The position numbers and the translations under genes are program-made. The notes under the pieces are model-generated. The model saw only the letters and a list, made by a program, of their open reading frames with translations, did no database searches and was not told the origin of the DNA. A stretch of DNA of 20,000 bases from an uncultured virus (IMG/VR IMGVR_UViG_3300013382_000010) (lineage: Duplodnaviria > Heunggongvirae > Uroviricota > Caudoviricetes), in IMG/VR virus record IMGVR_UViG_3300013382_000010, one strand, 5' to 3'. How positions within the stretch are numbered: the stretch's first letter is position 1; the number at the start of each line of letters is the position of its first letter. Shown one piece after another: positions 13,481-13,904 of the stretch.

Positions 13481-13517
13481 TATTTTAAAAATTAAAACTA
13501 TTAGAGATACCCTCTTT

Positions 13518-13855
13518 ATGCCGATGTTATAAAATTAATTCCTAGAGCCTGTGGAAGGCTTGGAAGTTGGGAATAACACCCAGTAAAACCACTTCGTGCT
13601 ACTACACTACTATTTTCAAAATCATAATATGGCTAACTATGAAATTTAAGTGGTCGGCTCATGTACAGCCACGGATTGCCATGTATCGAATCTAGCCTAA
13701 CTTAAAAAAGTCATCGGCACCCGTTGTCAGAGGGTAGGACAGAGCGGGATTAAAGCTATCTGTACACGAAACAGGAGATAAACTCCACTGTTTGAGGTTT
13801 TTATTATGTGGTCAAACGAAACTGCTAAACACCACTAAGATTTTTTTGATTCAAA
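13518..13855 (-). ncRNA. Candidate structured non-coding RNA, family not recognised
   Basis: Only large ORF-free gap; 112/260 G+C (43%) counted over 13541-13800 in an otherwise AT-rich window; many helices, with most G-U pairs favouring the minus strand. Boundaries are approximate. Confidence 0.55.
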
Positions 13856-13856
13856 A

Positions 13857-13864
13857 CAAACATA
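13857..13864 (-). promoter_or_regulatory. Possible Bacteroidota -7 promoter element (TAnnTTTG)
   Basis: Minus strand TATGTTTG at the upstream end of the non-coding gap; no clear TTG/TTTG -33 element at the expected spacing. Confidence 0.4.
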
Positions 13865-13867
13865 TCG

Positions 13868-13886
13868 GCTACCTAAAATAGGTAAC
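13868..13886 (-). terminator. Small hairpin downstream of the 13905-14126 gene
   Basis: GTTACCTA-TTT-TAGGTAGC: 8-bp stem with one G-U on the minus strand; no immediate U-tract. Confidence 0.35.
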
Positions 13887-13904
13887 TGTTAATTATCTAT
13901 AAAA

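Follow-up and report, generated by a model that had tools for sequence, protein, structure and literature searches.

A predicted pseudoknot-rich structured RNA on the minus strand of a crAss-like phage genome, with homologues in mobile DNA of Bacteroidota

The question raised by this locus is whether a stretch of phage DNA without open reading frames encodes a structured RNA and, if so, of what kind. The window analysed here (the whole stretch of 20,000 nt) forms one end of a phage contig of 76 kb and carries genes for PolA, a sigma factor, a ligase, a dUTPase, and a Dda-like helicase (15 proteins scanned with Pfam and PHROGs). An earlier note, made from the letters of the window, had proposed that a gap in this gene block holds a novel structured non-coding RNA. 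The gap (13481-13904, 424 bp) indeed contains no frame of at least 50 aa (translation table 11), and its core is richer in G+C (42.1% over 13546-13835) than the window as a whole (30.1%). The comparisons below lend strong support to a novel structured non-coding element encoded on the minus strand: its predicted pairs covary, it is more conserved than neighbouring enzyme genes, and it matches no Rfam family. It very probably acts as a functional structured RNA.

The PolA of the window is 41-47% identical to those of crAss001, IAS virus, and their kin, and a near-identical 155-kb record (G006, 86% complete) encodes a crassvirus capsid domain. The late genes of G006 form open frames only when TAG is read through, and a suppressor tRNA with a CTA anticodon is present at G006:C1:7564-7636 as well as in G007, G001, G002, and G039; G052 is also recoded, yet ARAGORN found no suppressor tRNA there. 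Read-through of TAG is confined to late genes in these recoded phages. Since size and recoding fit the Zeta group of crAss-like phages, as described in the available part of PMC7886860, the window phage probably belongs to that group, a label assigned from these two traits rather than from a tree. Elsewhere in this phage, the capsid gene region (L313; G006:C1:46179-48641) is interrupted by two NUMOD1 homing-endonuclease-like genes, probably introns, and an OmpA-domain protein with a signal-peptide-like start is encoded at L318:7676-8734.

Close homologues were identified by pattern scans of viral and metagenome contigs and fall into four lineages that are 78-91% identical, namely those of the window, L149 (with L204, L205, L207, and L208), L153, and L152 (with L200). 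Across 81 pairs in nine distinct close sequences, 98.9% of cells pair, compared with 37-45% when the structure is slid along the alignment; one broken pair each occurs in L121 and L153. Covariation, by which the earlier note had suggested that its candidate be judged, was detected as double changes at 18 of the 81 pairs, a number reached by 0 of 500 shuffles in a test that is biased in favour of the structure, which was drawn from the same nine sequences (four independent lineages) and RNAalifold. G-U cells outnumber A-C cells by 51 to 1 across the aligned pairs, and the minus strand is therefore the RNA strand; eight columns alternate between Watson-Crick and G-U pairing. The minus strand folds more stably than shuffles (z -2.22; 1/100), the plus strand does not (z 0.05), and folding energy, with sense-strand z values ranging from +0.35 to -2.86 over eight homologues, is by itself modest support. 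An antisense frame of 111 codons with TAG read through was rejected since it lies on the wrong strand and homologues differ by non-triplet indels (lengths of 341, 342, 301, 297, and 324). The element and its predicted parts are as follows.

13508..13841, minus strand: whole structured element, a predicted RNA of about 334 nt, with sharp conservation edges in the four close lineages and the same ends in distant homologues
13790..13835, minus strand: 5' H-type pseudoknot with A-rich loop 3, invariant in nine close homologues
13835-13831/13812-13808 and 13817-13813/13794-13790, minus strand: stems 1 and 2 of the 5' pseudoknot
13772..13790, minus strand: small hairpin H2, double changes at 3/6 pairs
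13658..13770, minus strand: helix A, 11 bp (13770-13760/13668-13658), which crosses helix E to form the second pseudoknot
13693..13758, minus strand: helix F, 6 bp (13758-13753/13698-13693), double changes at 3/6 pairs
13720..13748, minus strand: core hairpin B (4 bp, 3x1 internal loop, 4 bp, 9-nt loop)
13508..13736, minus strand: helix K, 8 bp, between the loop of B (13736-13729) and the 3' terminus (13515-13508), the third pseudoknot
13519..13719, minus strand: helix E, 8 bp (13719-13712/13526-13519), invariant in close homologues
13674..13692, minus strand: hairpin C with an 11-nt invariant loop, unchanged across nine close homologues
13587..13655, minus strand: domain D, closed by an 8-bp helix (13655-13648/13594-13587), double changes in D and V2
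13646-13618 and 13607-13596, minus strand: variable hairpin V2 and a small hairpin, both within domain D
13617-13608, minus strand: single strand GAAAAUAGUA (10 nt) in domain D, invariant in 12/12 phage sequences
13530..13585, minus strand: variable arm V3, about 40 nt shorter in L149 and L153 and much longer in L387

The overall fold predicted from these comparisons, branched and with three pseudoknots, is well supported, and element size varies from about 290 to 370 nt among homologues. The first 56 nt are identical across the four close lineages, and it is the 5' region of distant homologues that reveals the H-type pseudoknot: in L387 and L401 both stems are rewritten with pairing kept (for example, GUUUG/CAAAC becomes GUUCU/AGAAC). 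A knot resembling it is present in L419, L414, L421, and L420 and was not found in L423; it occurs in 10 of the 11 sequences tested, with 0-8 of 100 shuffles equally good. Helix A shows double changes at four pairs and single G-U changes at two, and wastewater contig ends provide two further paired versions of it if their fragments are correctly matched. Hairpin B, with double changes in both stems, is the most conserved part of the family in an alignment of 12 phage and bacterial contig sequences. Helix K has two double changes among close homologues and is formed by other paired sequences in L387, L401, and L423, at a constant 3 nt after helix E, which is itself rewritten yet paired (7-10 bp) in these three and in L419. 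Equivalents of helix F with different sequences occur in the same four homologues, and domain D is not kept in L423.

All nine perfect stems of the earlier note that were re-checked by coordinate are present in the sequence, and about half of the secondary structure that it proposed is upheld by homologues, the remainder being wrong or lineage-specific. The long-range pairing of TGCCGATG with CATCGGCA (13519-13526/13712-13719) corresponds to helix E, the suggested TGTACAG/CTGTACA pseudoknot is part of the 11-bp helix A and crosses it, and the GTGGT/ACCAC and TCATA/TATGA helices likewise hold. In the hairpin at 13769-13793 the GAG/CTC tip was retained, but the strands of AAACAG/CTGTTT covary with other partners, as do those of TTAAGT/ACTTAA with its enclosed GGCT/AGCC, of GAAGT/ACTTC, and of ACCC/GGGT. 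AGCCT/AGGCT and TGGG/CCCA belong to variable arm V3, whose counterparts in other lineages are either unrelated to it or shorter by about 40 nt. That first structure lacked the 5' pseudoknot, the pairing K of the loop of B with the 3' end, and helices F, B, and D.

More distant homologues may be considered an independent test of the fold, as their long-range helices are rewritten and still paired. A model of the A, F, B, and C domains gave weak matches in two of 49 more distant phage records, and a profile search confirmed both and added a third (E 2e-9, 1e-7, and 1e-6). Distant phage homologues are 50-54% identical by automatic alignment and keep the fold, with helix E as UGCUGGU/ACCAGCA, helix K as GACCCC/GGGGUC or GGCCCU/GGGGCC, and D and F rewritten. 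A core-motif scan of GTDB genomes returned ten loci, five of which are homologous and score 57-74 bits with model R3 (four of the five were in its training set; L420 was not), the other loci scoring 14.8 bits or less. In a Prevotella assembly, L423 occupies a prophage-like stretch, and the L419 copy shares an island with a resolvase gene and methyltransferase-like genes; at the 3' ends of both, helix E is followed by three spacer bases and helix K (5 pairs in L419). The usual 3' tail is missing from L414 and L421, and L420 ends just past the core. In 7/7 carriers recovered by a topology descriptor that is nonspecific on its own (2 chance matches, and 13 in reversed sequence), helices E and K are separated by exactly 3 nt, without any offset. 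A SAM-I/IV riboswitch match lies just outside the prophage-like stretch (L423:2350-2461), a Tad2-like anti-defence gene (L430:2658-3248) lies about 1.5 kb downstream of the RNA, and in L420 the break in the element is followed by an inverted repeat at the junction (2990-2930, minus strand), resembling an integration site; the upstream flank of L420 is common to L414 and L421.

Several candidates were discarded during these searches. Of the 120 loci returned by a first, loose pattern, one was homologous, motif scans of bacterial genomes based on the window's group gave 65, 1, and 13 loci with no homologue among them, weak matches in G001 lay inside genes, and five weak R2 matches in 4/49 records lacked the rest of the fold. 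L504, a core match with two mismatches, was rejected at 12.8 bits (E 1), its relatives sharing a short repeat only, and circular permutation of L414 and L419 was rejected given the normal 3' tail of L419. No copy was detected with model R3 in G009, G037, G041, or other loci searched, five blastn queries with four members of the family found nothing among annotated phages, and a plasmid search returned short chance matches only.

Known carriers comprise six crAss-like phage lineages (about 51-91% identical), a Prevotella prophage-like contig, and freshwater Bacteroidota islands. Among 50 distant crAss-like records three carry the element, the same three having trained the model, and among records at least 90% complete 2/20 do; since most complete relatives have no detectable copy, the element is either dispensable or too diverged to be recognized in them. 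In bacteria, one of 151 genomes of the genus Prevotella and one of 151 in the family of G056 are positive, each being the seed, and 401 genomes of the phylum gave two matches, one the seed and one rejected. As only seed genomes are positive, the element is an accessory component of mobile DNA and not a housekeeping RNA. It is present once per genome where tested. Among the DNA segments that G006 and G007 share, it ranks second in conservation (82% over 260 nt), below a tRNA (89%) and above PolA (75%).

No Rfam 15 covariance model matched the window at gathering level (the best E on the element was 9.3), which agrees with the novelty claimed in the earlier note; L407 and L408 gave no match either, and bacterial copies reached at best 22.4 bits against a cut-off of 72. 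The note had seen no signature of tRNA, tmRNA, RNase P, group I or II introns, or small ribozymes, and Rfam, ARAGORN, and inspection confirmed this. ARAGORN found no tmRNA, the covarying structure has no acceptor stem or T arm, and the sole tag-like frame lies on the strand that the G-U test excludes. In RNase P RNA, P1 closes both ends and the P4 pseudoknot has a bulged U and conserved regions I and V; in the element, no helix joins both ends, helix E is continuous, unbulged, and freely varying, and Rfam gives no match. Group I introns have a P3-P7 core with a G-binding site, a P4-P6 domain, a terminal G, and an interrupted gene or tRNA; here the flanks are intact unrelated genes in each lineage, and no P6 or G-binding helix was seen by inspection. 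Group II introns are marked by the domain V catalytic triad, a GUGYG start, and an intron-encoded reverse transcriptase (RT); the window does have a domain-V-like GAGCCG, but this is not conserved, and no RT was found in the scanned proteins. Known small self-cleaving ribozymes (hammerhead, twister, pistol, hatchet, HDV-like, and glmS) gave no Rfam match, and by inspection we take the strand order of the element to differ from the HDV-like double pseudoknot.

The earlier note had also raised a 6S-like partner of the nearby sigma factor. This was not borne out: the element is branched with three pseudoknots where 6S RNA is a long rod of about 180-200 nt with a central bubble, and the sigma gene also occurs in G001 and G002, which lack the element. 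A 6S-like RNA, or a very divergent tmRNA, RNase P RNA, or group I intron, is largely refuted as an explanation and highly improbable. The sigma gene does lie 2.5 kb away, the element resembles RNase P RNA, tmRNA, and group I introns in being about 300-400 nt long and multi-domain with a pseudoknot from the 5' half to the 3' end, its size fits tmRNA and RNase P RNA, and the phage group recodes TAG and is intron-rich according to the part of PMC7886860 available. However, helix order, topology, and signature bases do not fit, there is no tRNA-like domain, tag frame, CCA end, or bulged P4, and no Rfam or ARAGORN match was obtained at any threshold tried.

The RNA class and fold are uncatalogued and new, whereas the way in which the RNA acts may turn out to be a familiar one. 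Full-text literature searches found no account of this RNA, although a fragment of it may exist as an unnamed candidate within survey alignments (PMC10690425, PMC8040213, and bioRxiv 10.64898/2026.10.21.760802). In the part of PMC10690425 available, candidates are at most 151 nt long, and the core motifs are absent from the six supplementary files of that survey and the eight of PMC8040213 that were searched. By word search, a 2025 paper on Zeta phages (PMC12386605) has no passage on ncRNA, ribozymes, tmRNA, or intergenic regions, and the words 'tmRNA' and 'non-coding' do not occur in the available text of PMC7886860. The nearest likeness in kind may be sought in ROOL and GOLLD, described in the accessible part of PMC12286853 as pseudoknot-rich phage RNAs with no known partner or function. 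Like these, the element is predicted to be stand-alone, is pseudoknot-rich, occurs in phages and prophages, and has no identified protein partner; unlike them, it is about half their size or less, has a different fold, and is not beside tRNA islands (the nearest tRNAs in G006 are more than 30 kb away), and no ROOL or GOLLD covariance model matched. The known classes of large structured RNA in bacteria and phages are few, and several proved to be catalysts or to have unusual architectures. The element extends the biology of large crAss-like phages that recode TAG by an RNA, and its covariation-backed fold, exact ends, variants of about 51-99% identity, and short search motif make it directly synthesisable and testable.

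The tie to a replication operon was not sustained, as flanking genes, which run in the direction of the window's minus strand, differ in each close lineage. In L204 and L208 the adjoining thyX-like and metallophosphoesterase genes are split by endonuclease-like frames. That neighbours differ between carriers argues against a gene-specific leader, and a cis-acting leader (riboswitch-like or protein-sensing) controlling the gene just downstream is accordingly quite improbable. A start codon does lie about 15-35 nt past the 3' end in four phage lineages, and mutually exclusive pairings are possible, but the downstream genes are unrelated across carriers, the start codon is not covered by the 3' helices, and in L401 and L400 a terminator-like hairpin with a U-run directly follows the element. 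Typical aptamers are also smaller than this element. The window has a terminator-like hairpin just upstream (13886-13868) and the following box.

13857..13864, minus strand: TAnnTTTG box, a possible -7 promoter element (weak), 15 nt upstream of the conserved 5' end

TAnnTTTG is the Bacteroidota -7 consensus according to the part of PMC8748976 available. The box noted earlier is present at 13864-13857, but the 76-kb contig has about 90 boxes of this kind, and conservation among homologues is incomplete: it lies about 6 nt upstream of the element in L401 and L400, a version with one mismatch lies 7 nt upstream in L149, and none was seen upstream in L152 or L153.

An origin or packaging signal folding as single-stranded DNA is very unlikely. 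The element lies in the replication gene block of several crAss-like carriers, and single-stranded DNA tolerates G-T pairs; nevertheless, the site shows no GC-skew switch, iterons, or tandem repeats, its position shifts among relatives, most complete relatives have no detectable copy, and three pseudoknots with strand-specific wobble pairs speak against it.

Our preferred, though tentative, reading is that the element specifies a stable trans-acting RNA of about 330 nt that would bind a protein, as a decoy or scaffold aiding the phage or prophage in its Bacteroidota host. This reading is favoured because the ends lie in pseudoknots, neighbours are interchangeable, one lineage has its own signals resembling a promoter and a terminator, and no partner enzyme lies next to the element. 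The element, which we infer to be transcribed, could be expressed with early or middle genes or from its own promoter, and trimming or termination would give the transcript its conserved ends. With one end held in the 5' knot and the other in the knot between the loop of B and the 3' tail, the RNA would resist exonucleases, and its invariant single strands, namely the A-rich loop of the 5' knot, the internal loop of B, and GAAAAUAGUA, may provide tertiary contacts or a binding surface. Antisense action found little in its favour, in that invariant segments have no match of more than 12 perfect bases elsewhere in four phage genomes. A decoy has precedent in the phage RNA mimicry against ToxIN described in the available part of PMC3475682, and the part of PMC12283969 available describes tenpI as an H-type pseudoknot with an adenosine-rich loop. 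The element's 5' H-type pseudoknot of about 46 nt, with an adenosine stretch in its loop, resembles such type III antitoxin RNAs (ToxI, CptI, and TenpI), but unlike them the element is single-copy, has 280 further nt of conserved structure, no tandem pseudoknot repeats, and no toxin family adjoining it.

A core that is invariant and nested would suit a catalytic RNA just as well, and a new large ribozyme or strand-exchange RNA, while rather unlikely, is the main rival to the protein-binding reading. The strand following B would serve as an internal guide: it would pair initially with loop C and afterwards with the 3' tail, leading to self-processing, circularisation, or cleavage of other RNA. 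Consistent with this are the compact invariant core with its nested pseudoknot and fixed 3-nt register, and a placement independent of context. Moreover, the loop of hairpin C partly copies the 3' strand of helix E, a repeat seen by eye in three groups that suggests a switch or guide exchange. The resulting 8-bp alternative duplex is significant in L387 (11/500 shuffles) and marginal in L401 (34/500), but does not exceed shuffles in the window's group (212-224/500, three homologues), L423 (107/500), or L419 (417/500); furthermore, the element has no known catalytic motif and no split gene or exon around it. A new class of RNA machine or large ribozyme of Bacteroidota phages is unlikely; here the RNA would process itself, circularise, or assemble without protein as its internal guide alternated between loop C and the 3' tail, and the loop-to-tail pseudoknot would dock the reaction site or link monomers into rings.

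A guide-RNA scaffold or mobile-element end structure, like omega-RNA or bridge RNA, whose protein was lost or has departed, is improbable. Omega-RNA/HEARO and TnpB reRNA are of similar length, pair a hairpin loop with a distant 3' strand, and occur in mobile contexts, in all of which the element resembles them; it is also patchily spread across phages, a prophage-like contig, and islands, a serine resolvase adjoins the L419 copy, L420 stops just after the core, and L414 and L421 are without the usual 3' tail. Unlike these RNAs, it has no Rfam match or demonstrated guide, and no IscB, IsrB, TnpB, or IS110 gene flanks any full-length carrier. There is likewise no nuclease, transposase, or reverse transcriptase beside phage copies or in scanned G006 proteins, the element is single-copy, and conservation above enzyme genes argues against a relic.

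For the protein-binding reading, the putative partner would be a protein of host defence or one that binds RNA; in crAss-like phages it might be a phage-encoded protein of 148 aa. Scans of 98, 16, and 15 proteins with Pfam and PHROGs, covering proteins up to 900 aa and thus leaving out the largest late ones, revealed no reverse transcriptase, TnpB/IscB, SmpB, RnpA, TROVE, or toxin family in phage proteins. The candidate gene is located as follows.

L318:6222-6668 (G006:C1:146222-146668), minus strand: gene for the 148-aa protein, 31 kb from the element in G006

This protein is common to G006, G007, G039, and G052, is absent from G001 and G002, and tracks the RNA in 5/5 searchable crAss-like carriers. 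Among 50 related records it occurs in six, including all three RNA carriers (two of which are near-identical) and three in which the RNA was not found; none of the five bacterial carriers was found to encode it. It belongs to no Pfam family and has no Atlas match at 0.9, it has a motif that, read by eye, we take to be KOW-like, and its C-terminal half occurs as stand-alone frames of 81-93 codons in other phages. It is at present a lead only, since in G007 a second conserved non-coding stretch directly follows the gene and the protein may belong to that stretch instead. The second stretch (G006:C1:143270-143400, equivalent to L318:3270-3400, and G007:C1:132850-132974), the G007 copy of which has no Rfam match, is 80% identical over 128 nt and lies near tRNA genes.
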